Shown here piece by piece: positions 10,609-63,500 of a stretch of 64,000 bases of DNA; the stretch's first letter is position 1, and each line of letters opens with the position of its first letter. Both the position numbers and the translations under genes were made by a program. The notes below the pieces were generated by a model, which worked only from the letters and a program-made list of their open reading frames with translations, did not search any database and was not told where the DNA came from. Source of the stretch: Blasia pusilla. Taxonomy: Eukaryota. The stretch covers positions 2,666,001 to 2,730,000 of the forward strand of contig CM114271.1 of assembly GCA_050084515.1 (NCBI GenBank). The letters are read 5' to 3'.

Positions 10609-10609
<1 letters not shown>

Positions 10610-10652
<43 letters not shown>

Positions 10653-22590: not shown

Positions 22591-23039
22591 GCTAGGGTTC
22601 CACATTCATTCACATTGTCAGAGGCACTACACACACCATCGATGGTGCCTCGACAACCAGCGGTGCCTACAGTTCAGGCACCTACGTCGACGTCATGAGG
22701 AGTTGGAGTGACAACTCCTATGCCGGCTTGAGTGGAGTCAGTGTGGACCATAGTGTTGGAGATGGCCACTAGAGTGAGTCAGACTCCGCTATTTTCCGCC
22801 ATAGAGTTGGCGACGTTGGGGGTTTGACCAGCTGAGGTGTTCCGATTGGCCGCCACGGTGTGTGAGCATGGAGAGATGACCGCTTCTTGTTCAGAGGTAG
22901 TTGAGGAGGTGGTGGACTTGCCCTCGAGCGGTGCTCGGGACGTTCCCCACAGAGTCATGGCATGCGGCGGCGGCGAAGTTGGTAGATATGCCAGCTCGAC
23001 CGACCATAGAGCAAGTAGTGGTGACACCTGGAGTAGTGT

Positions 23040-23460
23040 TATTGGATAACCGAGCTGGAGTATTTTGCTTGGTTACTCCGACGGGGACAGTATACCACCT
23101 GCAACGCGTCCTACTTGATTTGGGAGCGCAACCCTTGATGTTAGGGAAGGCGGCGTGTTTAGCGTTGGGGTTACGGAAGGCCGACATTGAGCCTTGTCCC
23201 TTCCAGATACAGATCTCGATTGGGGGCGTGTCACCCACGCAGTATATGACTCGACATGAGATAGTTGTCAGAGTCCAGCCAGAGCATGACACGGATAATG
23301 CTATGGTGCGCACACGTTCGATTACGACACCAGTTGAGTCGTACAATGTGTTGGTGGGGAGTAAAGTGTTATATCCCCTAGGATTCATCCTTGACTTATG
23401 GGAGGAGACCGTTGCTTATCGGACAGGGTGGCGGTCAGGTGACGGCCGGATGAGTCAGTT
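23040..23460 (+). pseudogene. Retropepsin-like aspartic protease domain
   Basis: VLLDLGAQP (degenerate DSG; the second copy reads LDSRAQP) and downstream YNVLVG motif. Confidence 0.7.
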
Positions 23461-23829
23461 ACCCGTGCAGTTTGCGGGACGAGGTGGTCGATCACGAGGC
23501 AAGTCTGTGACCACGTTGGCGGCTTTCACATGTAGTGTTAGCTGGCGAGGAGAGTTGTTGGAGGGGAACGAACATGCGGAGGATGTCCCAGAAGCGGATA
23601 GTCCCACGGAGAGACAGGCCATGGCGGGTGTCTCTTCCCATGTTGGCGAGACCTCTTCACCATTGTGGGGTAAGACTCGAGAGCTACAGAGGAGTGCCGA
23701 CAACCTCGTGAGGCAGGCGTGGAGTCATGCTTTTATCCCAGAGCAGCGAGAGTCACGTGGCGATCGGGCCCTTGGAGTGGAGACGTTGACCCCAGTGGAT
23801 ACCACACCCGTTGTGTGGCAGTGCCCAGA

Positions 23830-24800
23830 GGAGGGTGTTAGGGTGTTAGATCTCTTCAGAGGGATTAGCACCGGATTGGCTGCAATATTGCAGGCGGGCA
23901 TACGGGTGCATCGGTACCTTTATGTGGAGAGAGATGAGATCGCGCGGCGAGTATCATTACGTCACGTGGCGAGATTGGTCCAGAGGTATCCTGAGTTGTT
24001 TCCAGTATCTGCAGTATGGAGATATCAGCATACGCTACCCGCCGACATCTCTTTGGTGGGGGCGCAGGATCTGGATAGAGTTGGCACCATTCATTTAGTG
24101 ATTGCTGGATGGCCATATCAGGGTCATTCATCAGTTGGCCGAGGATTTGGATTGCAGCATCCGAGGTCATGGATGTTTTGGGAGATGGTATGAGTAGTAC
24201 GACACCTGCAGGAGAGTCAGATATGTTATCCAGTGTACATTTTGGAGAACGTGCTGTTGTTGGAAGACACTCGTGCACGTGTGATGACGAGTGTACATCA
24301 GGTGAGGTCCTGGTTGGGACCTGCTGTGTTTTTAGATGCAGCGAGAGTTGGGTCACGTGCCCATCATCCACAACTGTGGTGGACGAACCTGATACCATCA
24401 GATGTACTGAGTCGAGCATACGGTGGAGTCTAGAGAGCACCACATCTCGCAGTGGATGCTATTTTGGGCTCAGGGGGTCAATCTCAGGTGGTGATATAGG
24501 ATGATAGACCACCGTTGGCCATGGCCAATAGGGTGGGGGAGTTGAGGGTAGCCTTACCTATGTCTGTGAGCTTCCCAGCATCCCATGCCTTTCATCAGGG
24601 AGGGCCAGGCATGATTTGGGATGAGGTGACCGGAGCATTGGAGGAGCCTACAGCAGATGAGCGCAAACGCGCCATGGGGTTCGCTACCGGTACTACAGCC
24701 GTGCTAGGGATGACTGAGGCATCCCGGAGACAAGTGTTGGGGCAGGCGATGGACCTCAACTGTCTTACATGGATAGTCAGCCTAGGTATGGCTGAGCAGA
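23830..24800 (+). pseudogene. C5 cytosine DNA methyltransferase domain (DNMT3-like) embedded in retrotransposon pol
   Basis: Motif I VLDLFRGIST; II YVERD; III ADI; IV LVIAGWPYQGHS (catalytic Cys codon changed to TAT at 24116-24118); VI YILENV; VIII VGSRAHHPQLWWTNL; IX ERKRAMGFATGTT; X RRQVLGQAMD. Confidence 0.9.
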
Positions 24801-25199
24801 GACGGATGCGAGTGTCATCCATGCCGTCACGTCCACGAGTTGGACCATTGCCTCTGTGGTCTCTGAGGCAGGCATTGGTGGGGCGAGACGAGGAGAGATA
24901 GGCACCTATGGACTTCCTGGGACGTCGTTCGAGCAGAGAGTGCGAAGGCTGCTAGAGTAGCACATGTTCATTTTTCCGATGTGGAGCATGGTGTAGGAGG
25001 TCAGCGTGGAGTGGCTGTTGCGGAGGTGGCTAGGGTTGCTACATAGCAACCAAAGCCGGAGGTTGCGTCCTCTCCGAGTGAGGTCACGATGGAGACTTGG
25101 GAGCCTATGCTAGGTCTCAAGTTGATAGGAGGAGAGCGACGACGAGTTCATAGGTTTTGAGAGGGCATGTCAGTTGTTTTGCCTTCAGTATGAGAGACT

Positions 25200-26500
25200 T
25201 GGGTATGCTGAAGGGTCCGGGGATACGGATTGAGTTGGCTAGTGATACGCTGATCTTTCTTCGACCCTAGAGGTATTATGATATGGAGCGAGGCTTGATT
25301 CATAGCCGGAGTCAGGACTTGTGGAGTTATCACATGGGAAGTATGCATCTGCCACAGTCATGCCGGCAAAGAAGGATATGTATGGCAATTTGACGGATAG
25401 GCGGATGTGTGGAGATTACCGTCCTATCAACCGACAGACGAGGTCAGATTGATACGCCATGCCTACTCCTGAGGAGATCTTTGATGCGGTAGGGCATGCA
25501 AAGATCTTCAGTACTTTAGATCTCCGTGCTGGCTATCATCAGCTTCCTATCAAGTTGGAGGATAGGGAGAAGACAACATTATGGGGGATAGATCGGTACG
25601 GGAGAGATTGCTTGTATCAGTGGCGGTTCTTACCATTTGGGTTGAAGAATGCGCATGCAGAGTTTCAGAGAGTGATGGATAGGATTCTAGCTGGCTTGGA
25701 TTTTGTACGATGTTACATAGATGATATTCTTATCTTCAGTTCCACGGTTGAGGAGCATGAGCAACACTTGGAGGAGGTGTTTCGGCGATTTCAATTACAT
25801 GGGTGAAGTTACATCCAGCAAGTGCATTCTTTCAGGAGCAGATTGAGTACTTGGGACACACCATATACCCGAGTGGATTAGGCGTTCAGTAGACGAAGGT
25901 AGAGGCCATTGTGCAGATTCCACGCCCTACAGATGTGAGTCGAGTCCGAGCATTTCTTGGACTGGCGAACTTCTATCGACGGTATCTCAACGGTTTTAGT
26001 GCGATCTAAAAGTCTTTGATCTTGTTGACGAGACTTGATCAGGTTTGGTTGTGGGGAGATGATTAGGAGCGAGCATTTCACGAGCTCAAGGACAGGTTGA
26101 CGTCCTCACCCATTTTACAGAGACCGGTTAGGAGTCGCCCATTCTAGTTACATACGGATTGGAGCATGTTGGGTCTAGGAGCAGAGCTTACTGAGAGGGA
26201 TGACGAGGAGAGGGAGTTCGTTGTGGGTTACACGAGCCGATCGAACAATATTGCAGAGGCAAAGTACAACTCCTACGAGGGAGAGTACTTGGATGCAGTG
26301 TGGGCCGTGGCACATTTTAGGTGCTATTTATTCGGCAATCCTTTCACACTTATCACTGATCATCAGCCGTTGAGGTGGTTGATGGAGTCCGACAAGCTAA
26401 CGGGAAAGCTTGCCAAGTGGGCTCTACTACTACATGAGTATGAGTTTGAGGTGGTTCATAGGCCAGGTTGGCTGAACCAGGATGCGGATGGGTTCAGTCG
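25200..26500 (+). pseudogene. Ty3/gypsy reverse transcriptase and RNase H
   Basis: RMCGDYRPIN; FSTLDLRAGYHQL; LPFGLKNA; YIDDILIFS; LHTDWS..GLGA; YEGEYLDAVWAV; LITDHQPL; NQDADGFSR. Confidence 0.93.
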
Positions 26501-26879
26501 TAATCCATGTCTGAGTCAGAGAGACGACACAAGAGCTCGATGGCACGGAGAGAGTGATGAGGAGATGGTGCCCGGTTGGCATGCATCTGCCTATCTTTGT
26601 TGGTTGACTATGGCAGGTCAGCCACAGGTGATGACTCCAATGGTGGGGTTGGATGATGAGTCTTTGGATCCGGAGGTTAGTGAGGAGGCGACAGGTGGTC
26701 GTGATATCCATGACGACGTGGAGGTTGTGGAGTTCTTGCGCAATGGCGTCATTGCGAGTACATTGAGTGCTAGGGAGCGGGATCGGATCCTACAGAGAGT
26801 CAAGAGGTTCAAGTGGGAGGGGACTCACATTTTGCGGGTATGGGGAGACGGTAGGATACGAGTGGTACCTCATCCTTCC

Positions 26880-27950
26880 GAGCGAGCACGTGTAGTGCGA
26901 CATGCCCCTGAGCAGTTGGGACATTTCACAGTAAAGCGTACTTACAGCTTACATCAGGTTCAATATTGGTGACTCGGCATGCATACTGGGGTACAGTAGT
27001 TTGTGGCTAGATGTATGGTATGTGACAGAGCGCGAGCATCCTTCAATGCTCCCACTCCGTAGTTACATCCTTTGTCGATTATGAGTTTAGGTTATCGGTG
27101 GAGTTTACACTTTGCGGGACCTTTGCCATTGACGGGACATCATCATAGGTACGTGTTGGTCATGGTGTAGCATTTCTCCAAGTGGAAAGAGTTGGTGGCA
27201 CTACCAGACAAGGCGAGCGAGGGAACAGCTTATGCATTTCTGATCGTGTGCTTAGTCACTTTGGTGCACCGGGCGGAGGTGTTGCCCGACCAGGGTACCG
27301 AGTTGAGGGAGAGTTTCAGGCCTTATGTGATCAGGCCGATAGATCACCGCACCACGTCGAAGATCATCCCGAGGCGGATGGGTTGGCGGAGAGAGTGGTG
27401 ACGGTGAAGAGAGGATTGCGCAAGTATGGCTTGCAGCGGGGGCGATTGAGGGAGTGGGACCTCGATTTGCCATGGTTGGCTATGGGTTATTGCTTTAGTC
27501 GGCAGGCATCCTTGGCATCATTTTCACCGTACTTTTTGCTCTTTGGGAGAGAGCCAGATTTACCTGCAGCGATTCGACGTGACATGGCGGAGGTGTTAGA
27601 TCTCGATGATCCAGATGTGTGGGTACAAGCATGTTCTTAGAGGGCAGAAGTTTTTCGTAGAGTTATGCCTATGGCCTTTGAGAACTTAGCTATTGCCTAG
27701 CATAGAGATACATTGAGGTACGCGACCATTCATGGAGGAGGTTATCGTCCAAGAATTAGGAGGTTTCATCCTGGAGATTACGTGTATTTATAGCAGGTGG
27801 CACCCACGACGCTAGATGTCACTGCAGGGCGCACGATCCTACGTGTGCGCGAGGTATTACCGACCGGAGTCCTCATGTTGGAGGGACGGGATTGTATGGT
27901 TTGGAAGGATCATGTGCGCAATTGTGCGCCATGTTATCTTCCGAACGTAG
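26880..27950 (+). pseudogene. DDE integrase (HHCC zinc finger plus core)
   Basis: RHA.EQLGHF...CMVC; RWSLHFAGPLP; ELVALPDK; DQG.E; HPEADGLAER; FSPYFLLFGREP. Frameshifted. Confidence 0.88.
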
Positions 27951-27994
27951 ATGGGACGGTGGTTCCAAACTTGGCAGTGGTACCTGCAGGCTTG

Positions 27995-28136
27995 AGGTGT
28001 ATGTTGTGCAGATCTGCAAGGGATGCAACCACCATGTTGGTATGTGATGGTTGTTCTCGAGGGTGGCATATGTCATGTCTGACCCCCCCTCTTGATGTGG
28101 TTCCCACGGGATGATGGATGTGTCCGAGATGTGTAT
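27995..28136 (+). pseudogene. PHD finger (C4HC3) at the integrase C-terminus
   Basis: CMLCRSARDATTMLVCDGCSRGWHMSCLTPPLDVVPTG*WMCPRC. Confidence 0.9.
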
Positions 28137-28203
28137 AGGGTAGTAGGTCATGTTAGAGAGATGTGATATTTTCTATCTGGAGTTGGGGGATCCAACTGCC
28201 AGC

Positions 28204-28214
28204 TAGGGGGGCGG
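28204..28214 (+). promoter_or_regulatory. Polypurine-tract-like G run immediately before repeat B1
   Basis: ctaggggggcggtt here and ctagggggacgatt at the equivalent place in the second copy (54809-54821, minus strand). Confidence 0.6.
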
Positions 28215-29008
28215 TTGTGTGATCTCTATATATATGTATGAGTTGATTTTTGTACATGTGTGGATTGACCCGTGTGTGGGTAAGATCAGTGTTGTATGGT
28301 GTAGATGTGAGCCAAGGAGATGATGTATGTTACAATGAGAGAGAGCGATATGTAGAGAGAGAGATGTGTAGCGATATGTATGCGCATGACATTTTATCAC
28401 ATCTGAGTAGCCGATAGGCCGAGATCTATCGTGGATAGGGCGTAGGAGCCAGCGGACTATCTTGAGTGTAACTTTGGCCCATGGTGTCGGATGAGGTTGA
28501 GGATAGGTCCATTGTGTTAGGAACGTCGTTTTTGACAACTTTCATGTTGAGGTCTTTCACGGCCGGTGACTTGTTGACCGGGTCACCCGCCCCTAGTAAC
28601 CTGTGCGCGCAGGTTACCAAGGAGAGGGCTATTTTTAGGGGAAGAGCCTTTTGGCTCTTCCCAACCCTATATAAGAGAGAAAGATGGCTTTCCTAAGCCA
28701 TCTTTCTTATGTTGGGCCGTTGGAGCACCTCCCTTGTATGTGTGTGAGATAGGACTAGGGTGCTAGCGTCCGGATTCCTTGATGAGGGTGGATGAGGCTC
28801 GATATGTCGATGTAGATTGAGGAGTGGAGTTTTAGGCCGGGTGTGCCATTTTTTACTACTCTTTATTTTTATTGTGTGATCTCCATGTATATATATGAGT
28901 TTATTTTTGTACTTGTGTGGATCGACCCGTGTGTGGGGAAGATCGGTGTTGTGTGGTGTAGATGTGACCAGCGATGTGTGTTGTGTAGCGATATGTATGC
29001 GCACGACA
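28215..29008 (+). repeat. 3' terminal B1-A2-B2 repeat block
   Basis: B1 28215-28391 and B2 28872-29008 share ttgtgtgatctc...gtagcgatatgtatgcgcaYgaca; A2 28395-28871 matches A1. Confidence 0.9.
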
Positions 29009-30573
29009 ATTGTGTGCCCTTTGTCCATCCCCATGGTTCTAAAGGTGAGATTCAAGGTTTCAAACATTGTTAGATACTCTCCCATTTATATATGGTTTTA
29101 GAGAAATCCACCCCTTCCCTTTATCTAAGGAATTCCTCTTGGACCATTCCTTATTTTCCCCAACCCATACTATCATTCAAACAATTTCAAGTATGTTTTA
29201 AGAATTTTGATTGTACCTTTGACCAATTTTGTGTGTGTTGAAAGTGGCTTCTTAAAGATGTCTGAAAGTGCTTACGCACCTTCGGACACCGTGCTTTTGT
29301 CTTGTCCGACTATTCCAGAATTTAAATGGGCTCCCGGTGCCACCGGGGTATTATTAACCAAACCGAATCCTTCAAAATTTTGCGTGCGGCTTTTTTTCCT
29401 TTTTTTGTCTGACAGGGCCCCCAGGAGCCCTGTCAGACGGTCGCGGGCCCTTGTCGGATTTCCAATGCCACCTAATTCCTCCTAAAATTTTGTAGCCTCA
29501 AGCAACAACAACCCTCAAACGCTCAATCAAATTCCAAGCGAGGTTGCATTTTCCTATTAGTCAAACTCTTATATATGGGACTTGAGATCTTCTCAATTGC
29601 AAGTTCCACCATGGTTCCATCTAGCATTTGATCATGCTCTTCTATTTCACAACCATCGTTTTTTGAGAAGCCCATCAAGCCATGTTTGCTTCTGCAACTC
29701 AAGTTTGCCCATGAGACTTTGAAATGTGTTTCTATCTTATTATCAGCCCACTAGAGTTCTAATGTCATACGTTGGCATACGCATAATAATGAGGGTTGCG
29801 ACACTCATTCTCTTAAGAGAGTTTGATGTCCTCATCAATAACAACAATTTAATTTCAAATCTTCCTATTTGCCTAAAGTCTTGAGTTATCGCATCTAACA
29901 CAAACAAAGATTTAATTTCTTGTTTTTTGGTAACCATGGATCGAGTTCCTTAAAGCTAATCTAAGTTAACCTAATAAGTTGATGAACTAAGCATTATACC
30001 TAAGACTTCATTTGCTCACAACATGTCAAGGTTGATATCCCTCATATTTATAAGATCCCCAAGACACAATGCTTTTGAATCACCATTGAATTATATCACT
30101 AGGTTTATTCGTCACTTCAAAAGTAATTCTTGATCTTTTTTAATATTCCTTTCTACATCTCAACCTACCTTCCGAGAAATTAAATTTGATTTTTTAATTT
30201 TCATACAAAATTTACATGTCTAATAAATAAACTTCCCAATCACGTTATTTATATATATAATGTTTTTATTTTAATTTGTTCAATTTCTATTATTATTACC
30301 CTTCTCTTGGTAAACTACACTATTCTAGATATGTCCAAAGGTTTCATAAATATCAAATTTTCCTTGGATGGTCCATCAAAATAACCCAACCAGGGATTTT
30401 TTTCATATACTGTTCTCATAGTTGGGCATCATTACTATAAATATGTGTTAGAAATTGCCATCAGAGATACCATGGGAAAAATTATTGAAAATATTTGATT
30501 GAAAAAGCTTGTTTTTTTCTTTAATGTTGAGACGTTCATTGGAAATAACCACCAAAATGTATTAGTGCTACAA

Positions 30574-31499: not shown

Positions 31500-33070
31500 A
31501 CGAGCATCTTTCTAGTCCACTTTATTACGATAACAAGGGAGATGGTTTTAAGAATAAAATCCACTTTATTATAAAAATTAAACCTCAAAAGAGGACAAAG
31601 AAGGGAAGGAGGCAAGAAATATAAGAAGGGATGCAAAAAGAAGATGACAACAAGCCAACAAAAACCAACTTAATGGGCTATACAATTAATAACTTGAAAC
31701 AAATTTGACAAAAACGTCTAGTAGTGGTTGGTCATATATGAATGGACGTTGAGGTGAATGATCTCCAACCACTTCGGTTTGACATATCAATACTAAGGCG
31801 TGTGCATGTTGTAATGCCATTAGATACATTACAAAAAATAAGTAGTAACAATGGAGAGAATAGGATTATAGAAAGGGCAAAGTGATGATTCTCGAGGTAG
31901 TGATAAGCACATGTTTTTCCAAGAAAGTATTAAAAGATATACATAAGTGCTCACATACTTCCACTACAAAATGAATAAATCCTTTAGTTGCATGTCTTAT
32001 TGCGTTACTTAACACCTTCATTCTTGCTACCTCATGGGCCATAGAACCTTCAATATGTGTCACTTAACACACCAAAGTCAAATTGGTTGGATCATCAATC
32101 ACCACATCATCTAATAGATGAAAGCCACCTCAAGACATAATAATATCAACTCTCTCACAAGATGTTTCTTGTTTAATAGAAGATAGGGCATGTACATGCT
32201 TTAGCCAAAAGATGTATCCTACCGTTCTAGCCATCAATGCAACCTTCTCTTTGATCACATTATGGATCCTCGTTTGTTCTCCACCATATGCACATCGGAG
32301 AATGTGGATACCCTTTGAATCAATGGGCTTCATGCAAACACAATTTGACACACCTAGAAGAGAAGGACGGGAAGTCTAAGGCATAAGCGTAGAGTTGTTG
32401 AGAATATACTTTGAGGAAGAGAAAATGGAAGAATAAGAGAACTTTAGTAAGCCATGCCCGCCCCTCTTGTATGTGCTCATGAATGCAAACGAGCTTGATG
32501 AGTGCCTTTGAAAGAATGCTATAAAAGTTGATTTATGGCAAAGTCTAAGAGATAAACAAAGTCAAGTAAGCAGATGGAAAAAAACTTGGGTTGAATGCTC
32601 TATCAAGATAGGCACATCTCCTTCGAGAAATCGTGAAGTCATAATCGACAACCAAACCCACCTCCATAGAAGAGATGTTGGTGCATATGTTACTGTGGAG
32701 GATGGCTTCATACCTCCTAAAGAAATGGGCAAGACAGCTTCTTGTGAATTCAAGACACTATTATCTCCCTTCAATGTATTTGGATGAAGAAGTTGATCGA
32801 AAGTTGCCACAATAGAAGTGTTAAAAGATTTCAACTCATATAAGAGCTTTGAAGTGGGAGGACAAGTGCAAAGAAGGTAGGATTGGAGGGACTTTGTAGA
32901 AAATATTGGTAGAGAATCCCATAAGCCACTTTGGGATCGCCTGGATGAAGTAACAAATGAAGCTGTTCTAGATATTTATGAAGGGCCTCATCAAACAACA
33001 CGGAGACACAATTGATAAAGCTAATTGGGACATCAAGAACTTGAACTCTTTGAATATACATGGTAAAATT
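31500..33070 (-). mobile_element. 5'-truncated degenerate CRE-like LINE (family B relative)
   Basis: Colinear with 13500-15120: VAYGILYQYFL, LPISLGG, DSKGIHILRCAYGGEQTRIHN, GFIHFVVEV, and a shared 3' UTR motif. Confidence 0.78.
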
Positions 33071-33596
33071 AGGAATAAGTGAGATGAATGTCAAAGGAAA
33101 GCATGAAAAAGATCATACAATTACTCATCCAAAATAATACCATTGGCTTACACAACCAACATTTCTATCCACTAACAAAGACATTTGTAAAAAATAAAAA
33201 TCACCTAAAAATGAAGAAGCACTGTCCAATACTACTAATATATAAATTTTTTTCGACCATAAACTTAGACTACTAACATCCATATGGACTAAGAAAGACA
33301 TGATCCCAAAATGAAGAGGTACTCTTTTGTCTTATTTTACTTACTTTAAGGGTCGTTAGAGAATATTTTGTTTGCCTAAGGTGCTAACAAGAAAATTCCC
33401 GACCGTAGATGCATCCATCCCCTCCCCCCATCAATTACATCGCCCCCGTCCGATTCGGGTAGCTCCCACACCATTGACGTCTCCCCGTCCCCCTCCCTCA
33501 CGAATGAAGTTGGGATCCCTACGACTGTAGGGTCTTTTCGAAACCCCCAGCAGAACAGCTGCGGAGAAGGCGGTGGAACGCAGGAAACGATTGTGA

Positions 33597-44800: not shown

Positions 44801-46323
44801 GCTTCCAAAGGTTCCTGAAGAATCTATACGAGATTCTGGCACAGCTCCCTTCCGCCTTGAGGAGTGAATCGAGAAAGGAGGATTTTACTAAAGAGGCCTC
44901 AGAAAAGACCTGGTGTTGTCGTGATTTTTGTAAGCCATTACAGAAACCTATTCTCGTAGTTATAGTCAGTTGCGAGTTGTTTTTAGTTCGCTTTACACGA
45001 GAACAGAAGAACTGTGATGGTGCACGTCTGGGATCATATTCTCCAGGATATGCTGATCTGAATACCATCTTCTGTATTGGCAGCAATAAGAACTAGAAAG
45101 GACACCTGTCCGAAGATAAACTGTGAGGTAATACCCTTCAGCATTCCATTCCTGGGGCTATGTTTCCGGATGCTGTAGCAAATAGGGTCAATTGAATGGC
45201 ATTGTATATATGTTTCATAGTTAGGTCATGAACTTTTTATTCCGTGCAGTAAGTTTTGACATTATGAACTCTCTCCAGGACTCTGCTGATTGGAGTGATG
45301 CAGTAATCCGAAAGCAGGCATTTGGCGAATGCTGGCAAGCTTATATGAGGCTCTCTGAATCCGTTGCTGTTCCTAAGGTGGGTTTGCACAAGAAGACATT
45401 GTATCTGGGGTTGGGTCCCTATCAAATTGATAGTGGTGCATAGTGGTATGTTGGGTTTGGCTTGGTCACTGCAAGCAATAACAGCTGGAGACAGGGTATA
45501 TGTCAATTTGTTTCTAGTGGGACCTCTGCTGTTTTAGTGATTTTTATTTTTGCAGTCCTGGTAGTAAGCTTAAGTCCATATTTGGGTCATATGCAGAATT
45601 CTGGTGGTATTCTGTCCCACGTTTTAGCAGCAGAAAGAAGCAGCTTAGTCAGGGCTTCTCCGGATTCATTCCTAAGTTCACTGGCTGACGAGGTGAGTTT
45701 GGTGGCGTCCGCCCATGAATGACTAACTATCTATTATCCTTCAAGATTTTATGTGTGAATCTGAAAGTAGGAGTATGTTTTTGTTTGGTTTCCTGCCTTC
45801 TAACACACACTGCTTGACATTGTAGGTGGGTGAGAGGCCACTGCAATTAGCTGCTTGTGAAGCATCTGCTGCAGATCAAGTGTGTTCTGTCAGGGGGACC
45901 CGTTGTGGCCGCAGCTTTGAGACCTCAGAGTTGGTCGTTTCAGCTGCAAGGGGTGGACAAGATGATGACGACGATGACGATGACGACGACGACGAAGATG
46001 ATGACGACGACGAGGATGAAGATGATGATGATGAAGAAGCAAAGGCAGGAGGTGGTGATGATGAAGAGGATGTGGAAGGAGAAGGTGATGAAGGAGAGGA
46101 TGATGAAGGAGATGATGATGGTGACGCAGATGACAATGGAGATGATGATGATGGTGAGGATGAAGATGGGGAGGATGAGGATGGTGATGGTGATGAGGAT
46201 GGTGATGAAGATCAGGACGAGGAAGAAGATGAGGATGGGGATCATGATGACGAGGAGGAAGATGATGAGGCGGAGGGAGAGTCAGAGGAGGATGTGGAAC
46301 CTCCCAAGAAGAGAAGGAAGTGA
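41829..46323 (+). CDS. NOC4 (nucleolar complex 4) N-terminal-like protein fused to a long Asp/Glu tail with C-terminal NLS; exons 41829-42179, 43947-44039, 44226-44299, 44555-44635, 44802-44929, 45084-45127, 45279-45377, 45597-45692, 45826-46323
   Basis: Phase-consistent GT-AG splicing gives an open frame. LKVFMELVR...FSNALYFKL, YFQYADVRYFTL, NLYEILAQLP and AFGECWQAYMRL resemble plant NOC4 from memory. Last exon has a ~115-residue D/E-rich stretch ending PPKKRRK. Confidence 0.7.
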
Positions 46324-49489: not shown

Positions 49490-50790
49490 TAGAGTGCCAT
49501 GCGGGGAGTTAGTTCGTAGACGGGTTTCTTGGTCGATTGTCTTTGGTGGAGTAGCACTCATAGCAACTGAGTTAGTGACTTCTTCAGCCTTTTTAGGGAG
49601 TTGGGCTTCTGTAACGCCCCTCCTTTGCTACCGATTTTTTGTTAGGGATTGTTACTTTTACAGTATGTTTCCCAGGTTGAAGATGATCTTTTCCCACTTT
49701 AGTCTTCACTCACAGCTTGTAGAGACTCCCTTCTTGATGAGGCTAGAGCAGTTCTTCCCGCTTTCTCTTCCCTAGTTACCTCCGGACAGTCTGGGCTCCA
49801 ATCTTCTTTGATGGAAGCCCACTTTGATGCATTGTTTAGAGCTACTATGTCGGACGGGAATATCCCTATGGAAGTTCGGGCCCGTATTCGCTCTTGCTCC
49901 AGAAAGGGTGGGAGCTCGTCCCCTCATCCCGGCTTTCCGCATCGCACCACTTACCTATACTACAGCGATGAGGTTCCGACTGGGCCTGCCCCAACCAACG
50001 GTGGTTGGTTCGACACATTGCGAGTGTCGTCGGAGTTTGGATCCACTTGCTGTGCATTTGGCACGGTGTCCAATTGGGGGTGAGAGGATAGCCACTCACG
50101 ATGCAGTGCGGGATATTATGTTCTCTATTGCTCGGGAGAGTGGATTCCATGTACAAAGAGAGAGGCACTAGTCCATGCGGGATTCCCTTATCCGTGCTGA
50201 TCTCTACATGACGAGGGAGTCTGAGGTGGTGGTAGCGGATGTTGTAGTCACGGATCCTACGCGGAAGGCGGTGCGAGCCCAAGTGGTAGCACAAGGGAGA
50301 TTGCTACAAGGAGCGGCGGCAGCGGTCAAGAAGACCCACATTTATAGTCGACTTCATGACGGACATCGATTTATCCCCCTAGCCATTGAGATATACGGGG
50401 CGATGAGGGAGAGGTTTGACTCATTCCTCACGGATTCCGCCCATCATCTCCAGTCGAGAAATGGGTTGTCCTTAGCCACTGCGATACTTTATTGTAGGCA
50501 ACGAGTCTCCATAGCTTTGGAGCGCGCCTAGGAAAATGGGCTTCTGCAGCGGGCTCAGGCGGTTGGAGACGCCAATGCTAGAGGCCCACTTAGTAGTAGT
50601 CATAGTTCTCTAGGTGTTGCTGATATTGTCTCTGCTGTTGGTGATTTTGGTTGTTAGGGGGGAAGGCCCCCTTCTTTCTCCTCGGGGCCGGTTCCGACCT
50701 CTTGAGGTATATTTTTTGGGTCTCCATGCCCCCTCTTTTGTATCGTGATGGGTTTCCCATCCTTTTTCTACATATATATATAATTTTTTT
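49490..50790 (+). mobile_element. 5'-truncated CRE-like LINE (family A): RT C-terminus, CCHC knuckle, RLE and 3' UTR
   Basis: MRFRLGLP...CECRRSLDPLAVHLARCPIGGERIATHDAVRD; RADL; VVADVVVTDP; FIPLAIEIYGA. Confidence 0.85.
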
Positions 50791-54070: not shown

Positions 54071-57000
54071 TTTCGTGCACATACACATCGCTACACAACA
54101 CATCGCTGTCACCGAACACTTACACAAACACACACGATCAAATGCTAGTTCATAGCATCCAAACAACAAGACAAGAACTACCAAAATATCTCTAATAAAA
54201 TATGGTGAAATCTCTCTCACACCAACATAGCTCTCACATGTCTCTCTCAATGTCAAACCAAACCCACTCTCCTAATGAGAGGCTTGGGTTACACTCACAA
54301 GGCAAGGGACCATAGCTGCGCCGCCTCGTGTCAAGAGATTCAACAAAGAGAGAATGAGCTCTCAATCTCTCTCTCTCCTTGAGGTATACCTCTCCCCTCT
54401 CCCAAGCTCTCTCCATGGTAACCTATGATCCAAGTCACCTCCTTGGCTCTTGACCTGATGTAGAAGGTCAAGGGCCACTTCTCAAAATACAAAGTCGACA
54501 ATACTCAAAATTGTACTTACCTAAAATAGTAAGTTCCTCAATATGACTCCAAATGAGCCGAAACGAAGGGGAAACCTGCTCTCTCAGGTTTCCCGGGGCC
54601 TTAGGAGGTCATCCTCAACCTCTTAAGCCTGTCCTCCACTTCTCGTGAAGGCGCTCTACTAGATCTCACCGATCTATCCTAAAAGACGTAACAACTGTCG
54701 TGCGCATACACATCGCTACACAACATACATCGCTGTCACCAAACACGCACGATCCCATGCTTACTCATGGCATCCAAACACAAGACAAGAAGTACCAAAA
54801 TATCTCCAATCGTCCCCCTAGTTGGTGGTTAGGTCCCTCTAACTCCATATAGCCATCTATCCCTACCTACCATGACATACATCTCTTGGACGCTAAGAGC
54901 AAGAAGGCTGAGTGCTCATGTGGCCCCATCGTTAGTCGCCTTCTTGTCATCCATATCACAAACACAAATCATAATATAGAACTACCTACGCTATGTACAT
55001 CTGGGACACATCCATCGTCCCTAAGGAACCTTAGTGAGAGGTGACTTCAAACATGTCATATGCCATCCTCTCGAACATCCATCACAAACTAGCATAGTGG
55101 TTGCACCGCGGGCAAAACCTCACAATATACATCGCAAGCGTGTAGGAACTACTCCTAAGCTCGGATCAATTGTATTGTTAATGTTTGGAAAGTGACACGG
55201 CGCACAATTACATACATGGTCCTTCCAAACCATACCATCACGTCCCTCTTACAAGAAAACATATTATGGCAAAACCTCACGCACTCCCAAGATGGTGTGC
55301 GATGCAGTCACATCCAACGTTGTGGATGCCGTCTGCTGCAAGTAGACATAGTCTCCCTGATGAAACCTCCGGATAGTAGGTCAATAACCACCTCCCCGTA
55401 TAGTCGCATACCTCAATGTATCCCGATGTTGCGCAATCGCCAAGTTCTCAAACACCATGGGCATCACTCTCCAAAACAATTCAGACCTCTGAGAACATGC
55501 TCGCATCCATACATCAAGGGTCATCTAGGTTCAACACCTCACCAACATCTCGACGAATGGGCGAGGTAAATCTGGCTTTCGGCCATACAAAAGCAAGTAC
55601 GGTGAGAAAGACGCTAAGGATGTCTGCCTGCTGAATCTGTATCCCATCGCCAACCACGGCAACTGGAGGTCCCAATCTCCTAGATAACCTCTCTACAAGT
55701 CATACTTGGGTAATCCTCTCTTCACCGTCTGGACAACGCGCTCCGCTAGTCCATCCTCCTTATGATGATCTCGCGAAGTAGTACGGTGGTCGATTAGTGC
55801 ATGATCACACAAGGCTTGAAACTCCACGTGGAACTCCATACCCTGGTCTTTCAACACCTCAGTTGGTGCACCGTAATGACTCAGCATCCGATCTAGGAAG
55901 GCATACGCTACTCCCTCACTCACTTTGTCAGGCAATGCAACCAACTCTATCCACTGGGAGAAATGCTCAACCATCACCAACTCATAACGACTATGGCCCT
56001 CTGTCAAAGGTAAAGGTCTTGCAAAATCCAAACTCCATCTATAACCTAAACCCATAATCGGAAGTGGATGTAACTGTGGAGTCGGAGAATTGAATAATGC
56101 CCGGAATCGATCACACACAATGTATCTAGCAACAAACTACTGAACGTCAGTGTGCATGCCTTGCCATCAATAATGAATTTGGAGCAAGTTGTACGTCCGC
56201 TTCACTCCAAAATGACCTAGCTCCTCGTAGGCATGACCTACCAAACATGCTCTCTGTGAAGGATGAGGCACTACACGCACTCTACCATCCTCCCACACTC
56301 GCAACACATGTGTCTCCTCCCATCGGAACCGTCTGGCTCGCTGTAGGATCCGATCCCGCTCTCTAACACCCATTGTGCTCGCGAGTACGTAGGTACTCCA
56401 AGACTTCTCCATCGTTGTGAATATCTTGGCCATTTGTCGTCTCCTCACCGGCCTCTGGATTTAAGGACTCTCCATCAGGCCTCGCCATCGATCTGGCTCT
56501 CCATAGCCAAGAAGCCCAAATAGGCTAACGCATGCCATCCTGGCACCCACTCCTCATCACTCTCTCCATCCCATCGAGCTCCAGTCGCATCTCACTGACT
56601 CGGGCATGGGTTTCGGCTCAAACCATCTGCATCTTGGTTAAGCGTCCCAAGTCTATGTACCACTTGGAAGTCATACTCCTGCAACAAATAGCCCACCTCG
56701 CAAGTTTCCCTGTAAGCTTTTCGAACTCCATCAACCACTTAAGTGGCTGATGATAAGTAATGATGGTAAAGGGATTTCCGAATAGATAACATCTGAAATG
56801 TACGATAGTCCACACTACAACCAAGCACTCACCCTCATACAAGCTATACTTTGCCTCTGCAGCGTTGTTCAAGCGACTAGCGTAAGCCACCACGAACTCT
56901 CTACCATCATCGTCATGCTGGGTGAGCACAGCTCCAAGCCCCAACATGCTCCAATCGATATGCAACTGGAAAGGACGCCCCCTGATCGGTCTCCTCAATA

Positions 57001-60000
57001 TGGACGTGGACATCAATTTGTCCTTGAGCAGGTGAAATGCTCTCTCCTGCTCATCCTCCCAGTGCCACTCCTAATCCACCTTCGTCAGCAAGGTTAGTGG
57101 CTTCGCAATCGAACTAAAACCCTTGACGAACCGTCGATAGAAGTTTGCCAATCCCATGAATGCACGAACTCGACTCACATCTGTAGGGCATGGAATGCGT
57201 GAAATAGCCTCTACCTTCGTCTGCTGCACACCAAGGCCCCTTGGATATATCCTATGACCCAGGTTCTCAATCTGGTCATAGAAGAACTTGCACTTGCCTG
57301 GATGTAGCTTTAGCCCATATAACTGCAATCATCGAAACACCTCCTGTAGATGTCGCTCAAGCTCCTCAACCGAGGCGCTAAAGACTACGATGTCATAAAT
57401 ATAACACCTAGCAAAATCAAGACCTGCCAAGATCCTATCCATGACCCTCTGAAACTCAGCCAGGGCATTCTTTAACCCAAATGGTAAGAACCACCACTGG
57501 TACAAACAATCCTTCGTGAGGATTGATGCCCCAAAATGCCGTCTTGTGCATGTTCTCCAATCTAATAGGCAGTTGATGGTATCTGGCTCGAAGATCTAAC
57601 AAACTGAAGACCTTTGCATGCCAAATAGCATCCAAGATCTCTTTAGGGATGGGCATGGCATACCTATCGGACTTGGTCTGCCGATTGATAGGTCGGTAAT
57701 CTCCTCACATCCGCCTATCCGTCGAGTTGCCATGCACATCCTTCTTGGTGGGCATGACAGTGGAAGATGCATACTCTCCATGCGACATCTCCACTAGTCT
57801 TGCTCCAACCAAGTCCTGGCTCCTACTTTGAATCAGAGCCCTCTCCATGTCACTATACCTGTAGGGTCGTCGAAAGATCGGCGTGTCACTTGACAACTCA
57901 ATGCGGATCCCTGGACCCTTCAGCATACCCAAATCATGCATACTAAATGTAAAACAACTCCTATAACTCCTCACGAACTGATGTATTTGACGCCGCTCTC
58001 CTCCTATGAACTTAGGGCCCATATCTGGCTCCCAAGTCTCCATCGTGACTACGGTAGGACTCTTCAGCGTGGGTGTAGATGGTTGTTATGATACAACATT
58101 GTCTCGGACAACAAAACTTGACTGCTCCCCTATAACCAACTGCAAAATTGGATCTCCATGTGTAGTACCTAGGCTCAATGTTGTGGCTACCATCTCCTAG
58201 CGTACCTGCAAAACATCCCAAGAAGTCCAAGGGTGTCTCTCCCAATCATCCCTAGTGTATCAATCTCCTTGGGTCTTGCCCCCAACCATTGCCTCAACCA
58301 TCTCGGTAGGCATGGGGCTCACCAACGCAACAATTGTGATCTGTCGCATCTGCAAACGACGTTGCTCAGCTACTCCTAAGCTGAAAATCCATGTCAAGCA
58401 ATTCAGGTCCATCGCCTGATCCAAGACATGACGTCGTGATGCCTCTGATAGTGACGAAACTGCCATTACTCCTATGGGGAATCCCATCACTCGCTCTCAC
58501 TCATCGGCGTTGGGCTCCACCAACCGATGTACTTGGTCATATCAAACCAAGCCATGTCTGGACTCCTCGAATGCATAGGAAGCGGGAAAACTCACCAAGG
58601 TGGAAAAGGCTGCCCGTGGCATGCCAATCTTGTTCATCACAATCAACGGAGATTGAACATCGTGTCATACTTCCTGTGATGGATGACCTAGATCCACAAT
58701 AGAACCCACCAAAAAATTAGAGGGGCGCTCCACTCTCGCATATGCCCTTTGCAACACCTCATGTGGTACCAAGTTGGTCCACCAAAAATGCGGGCGGTGT
58801 GCTCTAGAACCTACACTCGCCGTATCTAACAACACTTCCAGGATGATCCATGTGCGCACCTAATGTGCACCCGTCACCACGCGGGTATCGAATCGCCCAA
58901 AATCGGCACATTCTCGAGAATGTATGTTGGAGAACGAGGCTAATGCTCATGTAAATGTCGCAAGATCCGCATCATCTCCCAAAACAACCTGGACTGAGTG
59001 TCAACTAATCCGCTACCTCGTCCAACACGCGATTGGCTTTGACACGGCCAACCAGCAATGACCAAGTCTATGGTCCCTAGCCTCTCCAAGTCCTACGTCC
59101 CCAACAATGAAATATCCCTCGGTAGGGAACTTTGGTAATCCTAGATGGCGGACGCAAACAACAAGTCGAGAAAGCGAAGGCCTAACTGCGCTACATGATG
59201 AAGTGAAGCGCGCCTTGCAACATCATCAATCTCCACATACAGGTACTGTTGCACGTGTACTCCTGCCTGCAAAAAAGCAGCTAACCTAGTGCTGATCCCT
59301 CCAAAGAGATCCAACACCCGAATACCCTCCTCTGGGATGCGCCACATAATAGGTATGGTGTCCAAGGGCGTCATCAAAGCACTCTCGACTGCCTTGGGTT
59401 CCTCTGACCCATCACGCTTTGGTGCAAACATCTCGCTCCACGCGGTCTACATATGCTCAGTGGCTAAGTGTCGAAGCTCCTCAGTCAAGCCCCAAAGCGG
59501 CACCTCTTCTCCACGGAGTGATGCGGCGACCATGACACTCCTCTCCATAGAAATTTCAAGAACGAGCATATCCTCTGTATGGACATGTCCCTCAGTTGAA
59601 TCACTAGGCCAAGTGATGGCGCTGCTAAATGTTGCTAAGGTCGCCATCTCTCTTGGCCGTCGCTTGATCATTGCACCTGTGAATCAAACGGGTAATGAGC
59701 TAAGGCGCCCATCACCTGACTGCCATCCTGGTCTATAGGACGCTGACTCCTCCCAGTAATCCAAGGAAAATCCCATCGGGTATAACACTGCTCCACCAAC
59801 CAAGATGTGGTAGGACTCTACATCAATCACTATCCCCTTGGCTCGCGCCACAGACTCATCTCTAGGATGTCCCGGGCGAATCCTCACCAAAACCTCCTGT
59901 CGGGTGATATATTGTGTGGTACTCGCTCCATCCAAGGATGTATGTATCCCGAATGGAAAACGCTCTACATCGGCTTTGGTCAAGCCCAATCCTCTGAATG

Positions 60001-60553
60001 ACGCTTTCCCCAACATTAGGGGTTGCGCTCGTGAATCCAACAAAGACGCGTTGCGGACTAGAAGCTCTACCTCCGGGACTCACCAATTAGAAGACCTCTC
60101 CCCGGTTATCCAACAACACAACACCGAGAGAAGCCATGGCACGCTCTATCGCGGGTCTAGCGGGCATCTCTACCATCTTAGCAGCCGCAGCCTGCCATGA
60201 ATCTGACGTGGACGGCCCGAGTATCCGCTCCAAGGGCAGGTTTATCACCTCCTCTGCAATCATATCTAAACATGATGTAGGAACTCCAACTCCACGCTCA
60301 CATAGCCTAGGGCCAACAGAACACCTTGACGGGCGTACCTCCAAATATCATAACATCGAAAGCAAAAAATAGCGGAGCACGGTACACCATCGTGGTCGCC
60401 CCCAACATCGTACTTGACACATGCTCCTCGTGAGCATTAGTAATAGCAGTCTTCACACTCGTTTCTCCCATCGCCCTCCGTGCCTGCACACCAATAACAT
60501 CACTAACTCTCCTAGAACTCTGATCAGGAGAGGATCATCGATTGGGTCCTCAT
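54071..60553 (-). mobile_element. Second, divergent DNMT- and PHD-encoding Ty3/gypsy-like element, interrupted at its 5' part by a copia insertion
   Basis: Colinear with 22630-29008: protease (~59700-60050), DNMT (~58380-59330), RT/RH (~56600-57900), integrase (~55200-56300), PHD (~54995-55135), then G-run and B'-A'-B' repeats (54696-54810, 54203-54693, 54071-54196). Confidence 0.9.
58380..59330 (-). pseudogene. C5 cytosine methyltransferase domain of the second element, catalytic Pro-Cys retained
   Basis: VLDLFGGIST; YVEID; LVIAGWPCQ (TGT at 59042-59044, minus strand); YILENV; VGSRAHRPHFWWTNL; MMGFP; RRHVLDQAMDLNCL. Confidence 0.9.
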
Positions 60554-63500
60554 TGTAGAAAATTGCTAAAGAAGCATAACTGATGGGAAATGGCTCTCAC
60601 ACTCACACACCGCCATGGAGAACAAAATTTGCAATGACAGAATGAGTGGAGGCTGGTCCCCTTCTGAATTATATAGGGTATGTACAAGCAATCATAACCC
60701 TAACCTTAACCATAGTCCCAAGTTAGACTAACTATGATTAACTAACCCTACTTAAGATAATCGCGCTTAACTGACTAACCAAGATTAAGCTTCCCTACTT
60801 TGTGTGAGTACTAAATGTAGCAGTTCACGTGTCTCATGATCTTGACTGTAACTCAATCTTCAATACTCCCCCTCAAGCTCCTATCGATATCTCTAACGCC
60901 TAAATCATTTCTAAACATCTCAAACTTATCTCTAAACAATGCCTTTGTAAAGATATCAACAATTTGCTAATCTGTACCTATATACACAAGATCAATTTCT
61001 CTTGCAAGCACTTTCTCTCTGATAAAATGATAGTGCACCTCAACATGTTTTGTACGAGCATGAAACACAAGGTTATTAGCAAGCTTGATGCTACTTATAT
61101 TTTCTGCATATATTACACTAGGTCCTAGGTTACTAAAACCAATCTCAACAAGTAATCGATGAAGCCACACCGCCTCACATGTTGCATTGGTTGCTCCTCT
61201 GTACTCAGCCTCTGTTGAAGATAAAGCAATTGTAGGTTGCTTCTTTGAAGCCCAAATTATAGCTACGCTTTCCAAAGTAAATGAATAACCAGATGTGGAG
61301 TGTCGATCAGACACGCTTCTTGCCCAATCAGCATCTGTGAATCCCTGTGATTGAAAACTCGGAGAAGGTTCAAATTGAATCCCGAATTGAATAGAGAATT
61401 TTACATACCGCATAATCCTCCTCACAACATCAAGGTGAGGTTTTCGAGATGCTTGCATAAACTGGCTCACTAGGCCAACACCATAGCTCAAATCTGGTTT
61501 GGTTATAGTTAGATACATCAAACTTCCAACCATGCGCCTGTACATATTAGAATCTGCAAGCAAAACTCCTTCGTCCACTCCTAGCTTCACACTCTAGTCC
61601 AATGGTGTAGAGATTGGCTTACAAGCCGTCATACCATATTTTGAAAGCATATGAAGAGTATGTGGTTCGTTGTAGTAACCACATGCTCTCTCCAACCTTG
61701 ATAAAATCAATATCAAGGAAGTACTTGAGTTCTCCCAAGTCCTTCATATCAAATTCTGCTTGTAACTTAAGCTTGATTTGTTGTACCATTTCTTCAGTAC
61801 TCCTAGTAATCAAGAGATCGTCAACATACAACACAATAAGAACCGTATGATCTTGTACTCTCAAGACATATAACGATGAGTCAAAATAACATACCCTAAA
61901 ATCCAAATCTTGTAGGACGTATGTAATCTTGCCATACCAAGCTCCCATGTCTGCTGATGTCTTAATGCATCAAGCTCTTCCTCCATAGCTTCAATCCATT
62001 CGACTTTACTTGCAGCTTCTTCAAAACAACTCGGCTCGAGTTCTTGAAGGGTAGTCATCATATATGCATGATGTGTCGCAAGGAAACCTTCATGTATGAA
62101 TCTATGAACTGGATATGTAACTCTACTTGATCTACGAAGTTGTTATTCAGAGGTAGATGCCTCTGACACCTGACTCAAGCTCTGACTAGTATCAACAGAC
62201 TGAATACGTACTCTTCCCGTCCATGGACTCACAGATTTAACTGATGAATTTAGGACCTCTCCTAATCTTGCACAAGTACTGGGGGAAGTTAAAGACCATT
62301 TCTATTGGTTTACAATCATATTCTTCCATTCAACAGACGAGTTTATAGGTGGAATAGGCTCAGATGGAGCATACCATGACTTTAGCTCATCAAAGACAAC
62401 ATCCCGACTAATAATAAGTTGCCTAGAGGATGGAATGTAGCACTTATATCCCTTAGTTAACATAGCCAATGAAGATACATCTTTCACACTTGGGATCTAA
62501 TTTCTGACGTCTCTTAGAAGGATCATGACCATAACAAATAGAGCCAAATACTTTCAAGAAGGAAAAATCAGTTTTACTTCTTGTGAAGACTTCAAATGAA
62601 ATTTTATCATGAACTCTTACTGTTGGAGTTCGGTTGATTAAGAAGACTGCACATGCTACAACCTCTGCCCAATACACCTTAGGCATGTTCTTCTCATTCA
62701 GCATAGCTCCTGCCACTTCAACAATATGTCGATTCTTCCTCTCAACCACTCCATTTTTTTGTGGAGTGTAACGGCAAGTCACGTGACGTTGGATACCATT
62801 CTGACGTAAATAATCATCAAACTTTGTTAAAAGATACTCTCCTCCTCCATCACAACGCAATTTCAGAATGTGTTCTCAAGTCTGCTTCTCTACTAGAACT
62901 CTGAATGTTTAGAACACTGAGAATACCTCTGACTTGGCTTTAAGAAAGTATACCCATATATACCTAGAGAAGTCATCAATAAATGAAACAAAGTATTGGC
63001 AACCACTAAGACTAAGTTGTGATGTTGTCCACACATCATTGTGTGGATCAACTCCAATATCTTGGATGCTCTTCTACCTTGCTTTGGAAAAGGAAATCTA
63101 ATTTATTTTCCAAATTGGCAAGGAGGACATACCTCTAACGTAGCAAGACTCGCTAATTTAGGGAGTCTTATTACTATATTAGATGATGAAAGACTCTGTA
63201 ATCTTTGAAGATTCATACGTCCAATTATTTTATGCCACACATTTAGATTTGTGACTTGTTGGCCGGCTTGATCATACATTAATGTTTGAATCTCTGGCAT
63301 AAAAACATCTAATTTGAACATTCTTCCAAATATAGTTCCTTTGGCTATCGTAGTCTGGTCATCCATTGTTTGAATGAAATAATCATCTGTGTTAAACTTC
63401 ACTTAATAACCCTCTTCTACTATCTGTCCTACACAGATCAAGTTTCTTGCAATGGTAGGAACATAGAGAACATTTCCAAGAGCACAAAGACCATCTGATG

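Follow-up and report, generated by a model that had tools for sequence, protein, structure and literature searches.

A probable dead Ty3/Gypsy-type retrotransposon copy in a liverwort, with a DNMT3-type methylase, an integrase-linked PHD finger and split A-coding-B-A-B repeats

The 64-kb window analysed here, that is, the whole stretch from position 2,666,001 to 2,730,000 of contig CM114271.1 of Blasia pusilla (assembly GCA_050084515.1), carries two related copies of a retrotransposon that encodes a DNA methyltransferase (DNMT), and we compared these two copies with each other; no third copy was found in the 64 kb. The copy under study, element 2, lies on the minus strand at approximately 60553-54073 and is the second, diverged copy of an element located at 19547-29008 on the plus strand (element 1). 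Its 5' part, including gag and the 5' repeat, is absent from the window. As laid out below, element 2 is very probably a dead Ty3/Gypsy-type copy in which a DNMT3-type methylase is placed between protease and reverse transcriptase (RT), a PHD finger follows the integrase, and split direct repeats are arranged as A-coding-B-A-B. The features of element 2, and the long terminal repeat (LTR) that adjoins it, are as follows:

60554..60862, minus strand: putative 3' LTR (TG...CA) of a copia element, which bounds element 2 and is not part of it (polypurine tract and TG/CA read)
60090..60553, minus strand: remnant of the gag-to-protease linker, of which 60418-60553 is without detectable family similarity
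59687..60079, minus strand: retropepsin-like region (tblastn match to the Marchantia polymorpha protein P0001 at 60043-59687)
58350..59362 (about), minus strand: DNMT3-type C5 cytosine methyltransferase domain, motifs I-X in the usual order (tblastn and alignment to P0001)
58086..58088, minus strand: in-frame stop TAA between DNMT and RT, aligned to TAG 25044-25046 (plus strand) of element 1
57074..58085, minus strand: RT (tblastn 58055-57074; Pfam RVT_1, E=8e-9)
56621..57070, minus strand: RNase H, the longest open piece (150 amino acids; Pfam RT_RNaseH, E=1.8e-30, and RT_RNaseH_2, E=4.1e-30)
55534..56460, minus strand: integrase, interrupted by stops (Pfam rve, E=2.6e-11)
54991..55122, minus strand: PHD-finger remnant at the C-terminus of the integrase region, read from the translation (VCDGCSRGWHMTC at 55089-55051, CPRCT at 55008-54994)
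54811..54845, minus strand: conserved non-coding block with a polypurine-like tract (CTAGGGGGACG), directly 5' of B1', read from both sequences
54698..54810, minus strand: B1', internal copy of the short repeat B, abutting A' (sequence comparison)
54197..54697, minus strand: A', the long repeat, present as a single copy in the window, about 48-50% identical to A of element 1
54073..54196, minus strand: B2', terminal copy of the short repeat B and direct repeat of 54810-54698, ending the element at 54073 (...GTGCACGA)

The coding domains were mapped by tblastn with two M. polymorpha proteins as guides, P0001 (gag-protease-DNMT, 1278 amino acids) and P0008 (DNMT-RT-RNase H), and by a Pfam run on the open pieces of element 2. 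Read along the minus strand, the order is protease-like region, DNMT, RT, RNase H, integrase and PHD finger, collinear with element 1 at 22955-28140; both methods bear out the initial annotation, made from the sequence alone, in which the two elements were said to share their domain order. The protease piece of element 2 itself had no match in Pfam, the families Asp_protease_2 or gag-asp_proteas being found on the relatives P0020, P0025, P0026 and P0201, and its active-site DSG has become DSR (60037-60029). Similarly, the catalytic YIDD of the RT has changed to YIYD (57406-57392). Within the integrase, an H2C2 zinc finger (56460-56170; Integrase_H2C2, E=0.004, under the curated cut-off) precedes the DDE core (56136-55696). 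The coding region ends, in both elements, with a PHD finger of the pattern C-x2-C ... C-x2-C-x4-H-x2-C ... C-x2-C, followed by a terminal stop (TAG, 54993-54991) that is common to element 1. In element 2 this finger contains 2 internal stops; the homologous open piece of element 1 (27794-28111, plus strand; finger 27990-28138) matches Pfam PHD (PF00628) with E=1.2e-8.

The methylase of the element is DNMT3-type in its sequence, with a non-permuted motif order. In element 2, motifs I, IV, VI, VIII, IX and X are recognisable in linear (non-DRM) order and the catalytic Pro-Cys is kept, and Pfam DNA_methylase (PF00145) matches the stretch 58943-59092 with E=3.2e-9. When the Marchantia homologue P0001, rather than the broken window copy, was compared with the PDB, 25 of the 27 matches, the best ones, were DNMT3A, 3B or 3C (best E=1.7e-8), and the remaining ones were M.HaeIII and a 'DNA methyltransferase' (4onj) at E>=0.001. 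Motifs I-VIII are covered by the alignment to DNMT3 structures, and IX-X by a second, weak stretch of it. Pfam showed neither a PWWP nor an ADD domain in the window pieces or in the Marchantia relatives scanned.

The initial annotation described the FGG, WPCQ and ENV motifs of this domain as intact. They are indeed present (LFGGIS at 59308-59291, GWPCQ at 59053-59039 and LENVP at 58918-58904), but 'intact' fits only these three motifs, as the frame is broken many times: the DNMT domain alone contains 7 in-frame stops and 1 frameshift (about 58889). Motif VIII reads AHRPH, so that its second Arg, 98% conserved in relatives, is gone; motif I has also lost its last Gly, motif X lacks its Gly, and motif IX has a stop at its second residue (E*ERVMGF). 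Over its whole length element 2 is interrupted by 28 internal in-frame stops and by 4 or more frameshifts (near 60085, 58889, 57530 and 56500), the one near 57530 being in the RT. Element 2 is thus a pseudogene, a non-functional copy, and its FGG, PCQ and ENV are chance survivors of approximately 9% post-insertion divergence between its B repeats. Ten of 29 stop codons in element 2 are one C>T or G>A change away from the aligned codon of element 1 (5 CAG>TAG, 3 TGG>TAG/TGA, 1 CGA>TGA and 1 TAG>TAA), a spectrum that would be expected of a methylated, decaying repeat. As a mark of the elements, CpG depletion was uninformative, with observed/expected ratios of 0.71-0.74 in both elements and of 0.32 and 0.68 in host segments.

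The TAA between DNMT and RT is aligned with a stop in element 1, is followed in both elements by QP...TMETWEP, and lies just downstream of the point where the Marchantia models P0001 and P0012 end; in element 2 both sides of it are in one frame. This is probably the true boundary between the first and second open reading frames (ORF1 and ORF2) of the family. The aligned stop and the ends of the Marchantia models suggest an ORF1 encoding gag-protease-DNMT and an ORF2 encoding RT-RNase H-integrase-PHD, the latter putatively expressed by read-through.

At the 3' end, comparison with the B1'|A' junction sets the terminus of element 2 at 54073. The span first proposed, 54071..60553, is thereby shifted at this end; its other limit, 60553, abuts the ...ACA at 60554, a plausible end of the copia 3' LTR. 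B1' and B2' are identical at 101 of 111 aligned positions, and the B-A-B structure of the 3' end (54810-54698, 54697-54197 and 54196-54073) is as the initial annotation had it. Each element terminates on the right at the point that corresponds to its internal B1|A2 junction, and the final approximately 43 nucleotides of B are 88-93% identical between element 2 and both B ends of element 1. The A repeats had been called largely dissimilar, which is correct because A' and the A of element 1, at 48-50% identity, are no more alike than shuffled controls (20 controls; mean 43%, maximum 50%). Further copies of B, A or A' were sought elsewhere in the window and none was found, the only matches being of low complexity near 10607-10648. 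A block of approximately 35 nucleotides that matches the polypurine-like block of element 2 (CTAGGGGGRCG) stands directly 5' of B1 in element 1 (28180-28214, plus strand), while the rest of the 3' untranslated sequence around it is poorly conserved between the elements; presumably the block serves as the plus-strand primer site.

At the other end, the family similarity of element 2 can be traced only to approximately 60417 (E=0.006), and a search of 60418-60553 detected none. The 5' part was apparently cut off by insertion of the copia element, whose pol runs from 63723 to 60967 and whose ORFs match Pfam Pol_BBD and SH3_retrovirus. The limits of the copia LTR are those suggested by its sequence, and the 5' LTR would lie outside the window; a second copy of the LTR, sought in the window to fix the junction between copia and element 2, was not found.

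Element 1 serves as the structurally complete reference copy, established from its repeats and by domain mapping. Its parts, all on the plus strand, are:

19547-29008: element 1
19547-20031: A1
from about 21123: gag
23837-24790: DNMT
to 28135: PHD finger
28215-28392: B1
28393-28871: A2
28872-29008: B2

The full order is A1, gag, protease-like region, DNMT, RT, RNase H, integrase, PHD finger, B1, A2 and B2. A1 and A2 are identical at 455 of 478 positions (95%) and B1 and B2 at 124 of 137. No B flanks the 5' A on either side, so that A stands alone at the 5' end and the layout is A-internal-B-A-B. The DNMT domain of element 1 has 3 in-frame stops, and several of its motifs are altered: WPYQ (catalytic Cys gone), FRG for FGG and AHHPQ for AHRxR, together with DLG for DSG in the protease (positions 23852-23869, 24107-24121, 24353-24382 and 23111-23131). 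The repeats of element 1 look younger, yet the catalytic Cys is lost; element 1 is no older than element 2. Immediately outside element 1 (19546-19551 and 29007-29013) we noted CAATC on the 5' side and CAATT on the 3' side, a possible 5-bp target-site duplication with a 4/5 match, for which we estimate a chance of roughly 5% over a few registers; if real, the duplication argues for insertion by a DDE integrase despite the DIRS-like repeats. Within repeat A of element 1 (19748-19865 and 28596-28707) there are several short inverted repeats (palindromes capable of forming hairpins), as well as a TATA-like CTATATAAGAGAG, which suggests that A may carry the promoter. A primer-binding site for the initiator tRNA was not found after A1: the window contains 2 matches with 2 mismatches (5.2 being the chance expectation), of which one, at 4144, belongs to neither element and the other, at 57828, falls inside the RT-coding region of element 2.

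The two elements have diverged substantially in protein sequence, as the initial annotation stated: 54% of the amino acids are identical across 317 DNMT codons, and 70% across the 936 codons from RT to integrase. In global alignments, nucleotide identity is 57-64% in the protease-DNMT part and 69-82% in the RT-integrase part, and of the window's 15 inverted-repeat pairs that are 60 or more nucleotides long, 12 link the two elements (74-81% identity, 54986-58445), the other 3 being unrelated repeats. Nonsynonymous and synonymous differences per site (pN and pS) and the corresponding rate ratio (dN/dS) were obtained by the Nei-Gojobori method on codon pairs taken from the nucleotide alignment, leaving out those with a stop or a gap:

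DNMT, 317 codons: pS 0.721, pN 0.267, dN/dS 0.135
protease-like region, 187 codons: pS 0.731, pN 0.270, dN/dS 0.12
RT, 285 codons: pS 0.516, pN 0.131, dN/dS 0.17
RNase H, 176 codons: pS 0.683, pN 0.144, dN/dS 0.09
integrase, 421 codons: pS 0.615, pN 0.152, dN/dS 0.13
two linkers, 104 and 108 codons: dN/dS 0.24 and 0.40

Protein change in the DNMT is thus approximately twice that in RT, RNase H and integrase. The uncorrected pN/pS of the DNMT is 0.37 in frame (bootstrap 0.31-0.43), as compared to 0.89 and 1.39 in the two shifted frames, which binds the third-position excess to the DNMT reading frame. These data support purifying selection on the DNMT coding region through most of the divergence between elements 1 and 2, and constraint in the active lineages would be stronger than the figures, because both copies also decayed neutrally after insertion. 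The initial annotation, which named a dN/dS near 1 in this domain as evidence against its proposal (the nominal value between the two single copies is 0.135), had concluded from the retained motifs that enzyme activity is under purifying selection during transposition. The constraint on the protein has stood up, but the reasoning from motif retention has not, as three kept motifs in a pseudogene are no evidence of selection; the timing is conjecture, dN/dS telling neither when the protein acts nor on what substrate. For the abundance of the lineage, which the initial annotation also proposed, two copies in a single window are too small a basis. As a separate observation, pS is uneven along the elements (0.52 in the RT, region 25124-25990 / 58055-57200; 0.72-0.73 in DNMT and protease; 0.62-0.68 in integrase and RNase H), which could come from recombination between lineages or from constraint at the nucleotide level.

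Relatives of the methylase are found in bryophytes and among unnamed polyproteins. With the protease-DNMT ORF of element 1 as query, 12 of the 15 protein matches are from M. polymorpha (44-55% identity), and the DNMT region of P0001 matches 64 proteins, many of them unnamed polyproteins and others from Marchantia (15), Calypogeia fissa and Sphagnum fallax; neither query had a match that was named as a Klebsormidium sequence. Conservation was counted in the 56 of these 64 that span 280 or more of the 346 reference residues (down to approximately 35% identity): 95% retain the Cys of motif IV and 100% the E and N of ENV, and the AHRxR of motif VIII is conserved at 96-100%. A quick tree placed both window copies in a clade of 18 rows (support 100 in the Shimodaira-Hasegawa-like approximate likelihood ratio test) together with 11 Marchantia rows, Calypogeia, Sphagnum and 3 unnamed rows; elements 1 and 2 pair weakly (82). 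An exhaustive search with the Calypogeia protein gave 4631, 925 and 281 representative clusters at E<=1e-3, 1e-10 and 1e-30, respectively. From 150 listed matches we picked 30 long representatives (1052-2188 amino acids), of which 23 have an H2C2 and/or rve integrase, 13 a PHD finger and 0 a tyrosine recombinase. Their order is RT-RNase H-DNMT-integrase in 22, DNMT at the start followed by integrase in 4, and DNMT before RT in 4, which makes the order in the window a minority, bryophyte-type one. Unnamed polyproteins of the order RT-RNase H-DNMT-integrase-PHD (P0032, P0219 and P0247), with DNMTs 35-42% identical to that of P0001 (E 1e-45 to 1e-65), share the integrase type and the PHD finger with the window elements but have their DNMT between RNase H and integrase. 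Among the Marchantia models, P0008 combines DNMT, RVT_1 and RNase H in one protein, and P0195 reads CCHC-DNMT-RT-RNase H-integrase. Look-alikes of the DNMT domain in the ESM Atlas were generic DNA_methylase clusters only.

With regard to class, Pfam and tblastn agree on the Ty3/Gypsy order of Pol, RT - RNase H - integrase (DDE, rve). Flanking LTRs of the Ty3/Gypsy type were not seen; instead, element 1 has A-internal-B-A-B and element 2 the same 3' half, and the DIRS-like split direct repeats A1 ... B1-A2-B2 are accordingly complete in element 1 and represented by their 3' half in element 2. Assignment to DIRS by a tyrosine recombinase was rejected, rve and H2C2 being present in its place: Phage_integrase had no match in the sense or antisense ORFs scanned of both elements. 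Ten antisense or leftover ORFs gave no other credible domain in Pfam at E<=0.1; DUF5795 (E=0.063) and PUA_NSUN2 (E=0.099) were discarded as chance matches, far below the curated cut-offs. Chromoviruses are Ty3/Gypsy elements with a chromodomain fused to the C-terminus of the integrase and with LTR ends. They resemble the window elements in carrying a chromatin-reader module at this position, which in the window is a PHD finger, and the ends here are split repeats.

Elements of this kind have been described before (de Mendoza et al., 2018, PMC5890265). According to the legends of Figs 1 and 4 of that paper, Klebsormidium Gypsy-Dnmt3 elements have A-coding-B-A-B repeats, the layout that it also gives, as 'A-coding region-B-A-B', for Symbiodinium DIRS-Dnmt3 elements, and a Ka/Ks (the counterpart of our dN/dS) of less than 0.2 is reported; a dinoflagellate (Symbiodinium) DIRS-Dnmt3 enzyme was tested in yeast. 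As there described, KnitGypsy-Dnmt3 of Klebsormidium nitens is like the window elements in having Gypsy RT, RNase H and a DDE integrase, a non-rearranged Dnmt3-type methylase in the coding region, A-coding-B-A-B repeats, and purifying selection (Ka/Ks < 0.2 as compared to a nominal 0.14 and a raw 0.37 here). This point-by-point agreement shows that the kind of element is already known. The differences are in the host, a charophyte alga there and a liverwort-like land plant here; in the DNMT, which in the window lies between protease and RT upstream of the shared stop and thus in the Gag-protease product, as opposed to the 'Pol' of the published description; and in the PHD finger after the integrase, the word 'PHD' being absent from the main text of PMC5890265. 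SymbioDIRS-Dnmt3, in the same description, shares with the window a Dnmt3-type methylase in a retrotransposon polyprotein, A-coding-B-A-B repeats and the coexistence of variant domain orders, but has a tyrosine recombinase where the window elements have a DDE integrase with an H2C2 zinc finger. A line of a 2026 preprint (10.64898/2026.05.21.726589) mentions 'streptophytes (Gypsy-DNMT3)', and a passage in a 2019 opinion paper (PMC6338049) has methylase-encoding transposons absent from land plants 'such as tracheophytes'. Marchantia does not appear in the species table of PMC5890265. Our literature search, with subscription journals outside its scope, found no account of DNMT-encoding Gypsy elements in Marchantia or other bryophytes, and the Marchantia gene identifiers returned 0 papers.

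Elsewhere in the window, a diaminopimelate decarboxylase exon has its best match in Riccia sorocarpa (45% identity). An ORF with a WRKY DNA-binding domain (4816-5220, minus strand; Pfam E=6.8e-13) carries the heptad WRKYGEI, the usual one being WRKYGQK, and a 317-amino-acid ORF in a GC-rich stretch (9045-9998, minus strand) contains the EsV-1-7 cysteine-rich motif (Pfam PF19114, E=4.8e-6), which was first named from a brown-algal virus. Other transposable elements probably account for two further repeat families, 12545-13295 / 50229-50686 and 13762-15167 / 31822-33117, of which one forms an inverted pair of 86-95% identity with ORFs lacking Pfam matches and the other a direct pair of 74-79% identity. 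The window also holds a tandem array at 106-815 (approximately 64-nucleotide spacing, 7 overlapping 144-nucleotide copies, 60-78% identity) and an ORF at 45826-46323 (plus strand) that consists almost entirely of Asp/Glu runs and ends in KKRRK, like acidic nuclear proteins.

Three other explanations of the locus were weighed. The B-A-B end might be an accident, either of nested or tandem insertion or of a solo LTR that adjoins an ordinary LTR element with A, or B+A, as its true LTR. There are only two elements to judge from, one of them with a 5' end, and the polypurine-like block directly precedes B1, as it would precede the start of a conventional 3' LTR. Nevertheless, we regard an accident as improbable: the layout is identical in two copies whose A repeats cannot be aligned and whose coding DNA is 57-82% identical, both copies end at the same conserved B terminus, which is their internal B1|A2 junction, the window has no further B, not even beside the 5' A of element 1, and the same layout is given for Klebsormidium Gypsy-Dnmt3 in the published description (PMC5890265). 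It is also conceivable that the DNMT is a passenger under relaxed constraint, captured once and drifting, with its motifs shared only by ancestry. The domain is in fact the fastest-evolving enzymatic one (pN 0.27 as compared to 0.13-0.15 for RT, RNase H and integrase), and both window copies are damaged at conserved DNMT positions. This explanation seems very improbable to us in view of the in-frame pN/pS of 0.37 [0.31-0.43] as compared to approximately 0.9-1.4 in shifted frames, of a motif IV Cys and an ENV kept in 95% and 100% of the 56 relatives, and of the 281 representative clusters that match at E<=1e-30.

The remaining alternative, a host DNMT3 pseudogene that lies by chance inside a degraded Gypsy element, would fit the observation that the best matches among solved structures are the host-type DNMT3A and 3B. 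The DNMT3A match is weak, however (E about 1e-8), as compared to 40-95% identity within the element family, PWWP and ADD domains were not detected, and the collinearity of protease, DNMT and RT without intervening repeats recurs in element 1, P0008 and P0195. Such a chimeric locus has next to no probability left and is effectively refuted by the collinearity in element 1 and in the Marchantia proteins.

A dead Ty3/Gypsy-type copy with its own DNMT3-type methylase therefore remains our preferred explanation for element 2, and several points weigh against it. The DDE integrase coexists with DIRS-like split repeats without a worked-out replication scheme, no primer-binding site was found, and the target-site duplication of element 1 matches at only 4/5 positions (CAATC/CAATT). 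The likeness to KnitGypsy-Dnmt3 is a likeness to its published description. The nominal DNMT dN/dS compares two dead single copies rather than family consensuses and is soft because dS is saturated (pS 0.72; 359 of 500 bootstraps correctable), so that only pN well below pS is safe. Finally, self-methylation of the element's complementary DNA (cDNA), as considered next, is borrowed from another class of element in another kingdom.

By analogy with the dinoflagellate DIRS-Dnmt3 elements, active members of the family would make the methylase within the Gag-protease-DNMT product, and it may methylate the newly made cDNA of the element, or its insertion site, de novo. The PHD finger could steer the integrase to chromatin in a particular (histone) state, much like the chromodomain of a chromovirus. 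Both termini might be fixed by the internal B1|A2 junction, acting as template or recognition point, and A-internal-B-A-B could formally be obtained by opening a two-repeat circle (B-A-internal-B-A) at the B|A junction. Element 2 itself no longer does any of this; it is inert with respect to methylation, integration steering and the definition of termini. A more far-reaching and rather doubtful possibility is that the window copies stem from an old, streptophyte-wide, integrase-bearing lineage that survives in liverworts and mosses, with DNMT3 in the Gag-protease product upstream of a read-through stop, PHD on the integrase, and DIRS-like split-repeat replication without a tyrosine recombinase. 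If this were true, a DDE integrase would have to be able, by a route not described so far, to insert a permuted or circular cDNA that is cut at the B|A junction.

In summary, element 2 represents a new host group and a different domain arrangement for a kind of element that is already known. Methylase-encoding retrotransposons invert the usual view of methylation as a weapon of the host, and the streptophyte examples described so far come from a single alga. The window, together with the named proteins from Marchantia, Calypogeia and Sphagnum, shows that bryophytes carry methylase-encoding retrotransposons, and bryophytes are tractable for testing the element-borne DNMT3, the integrase-linked PHD finger and the combination of a DDE integrase with DIRS-type repeats. 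Should any copies still be active there, this model plant group would contain a source of de novo methylation that is carried by the elements themselves.

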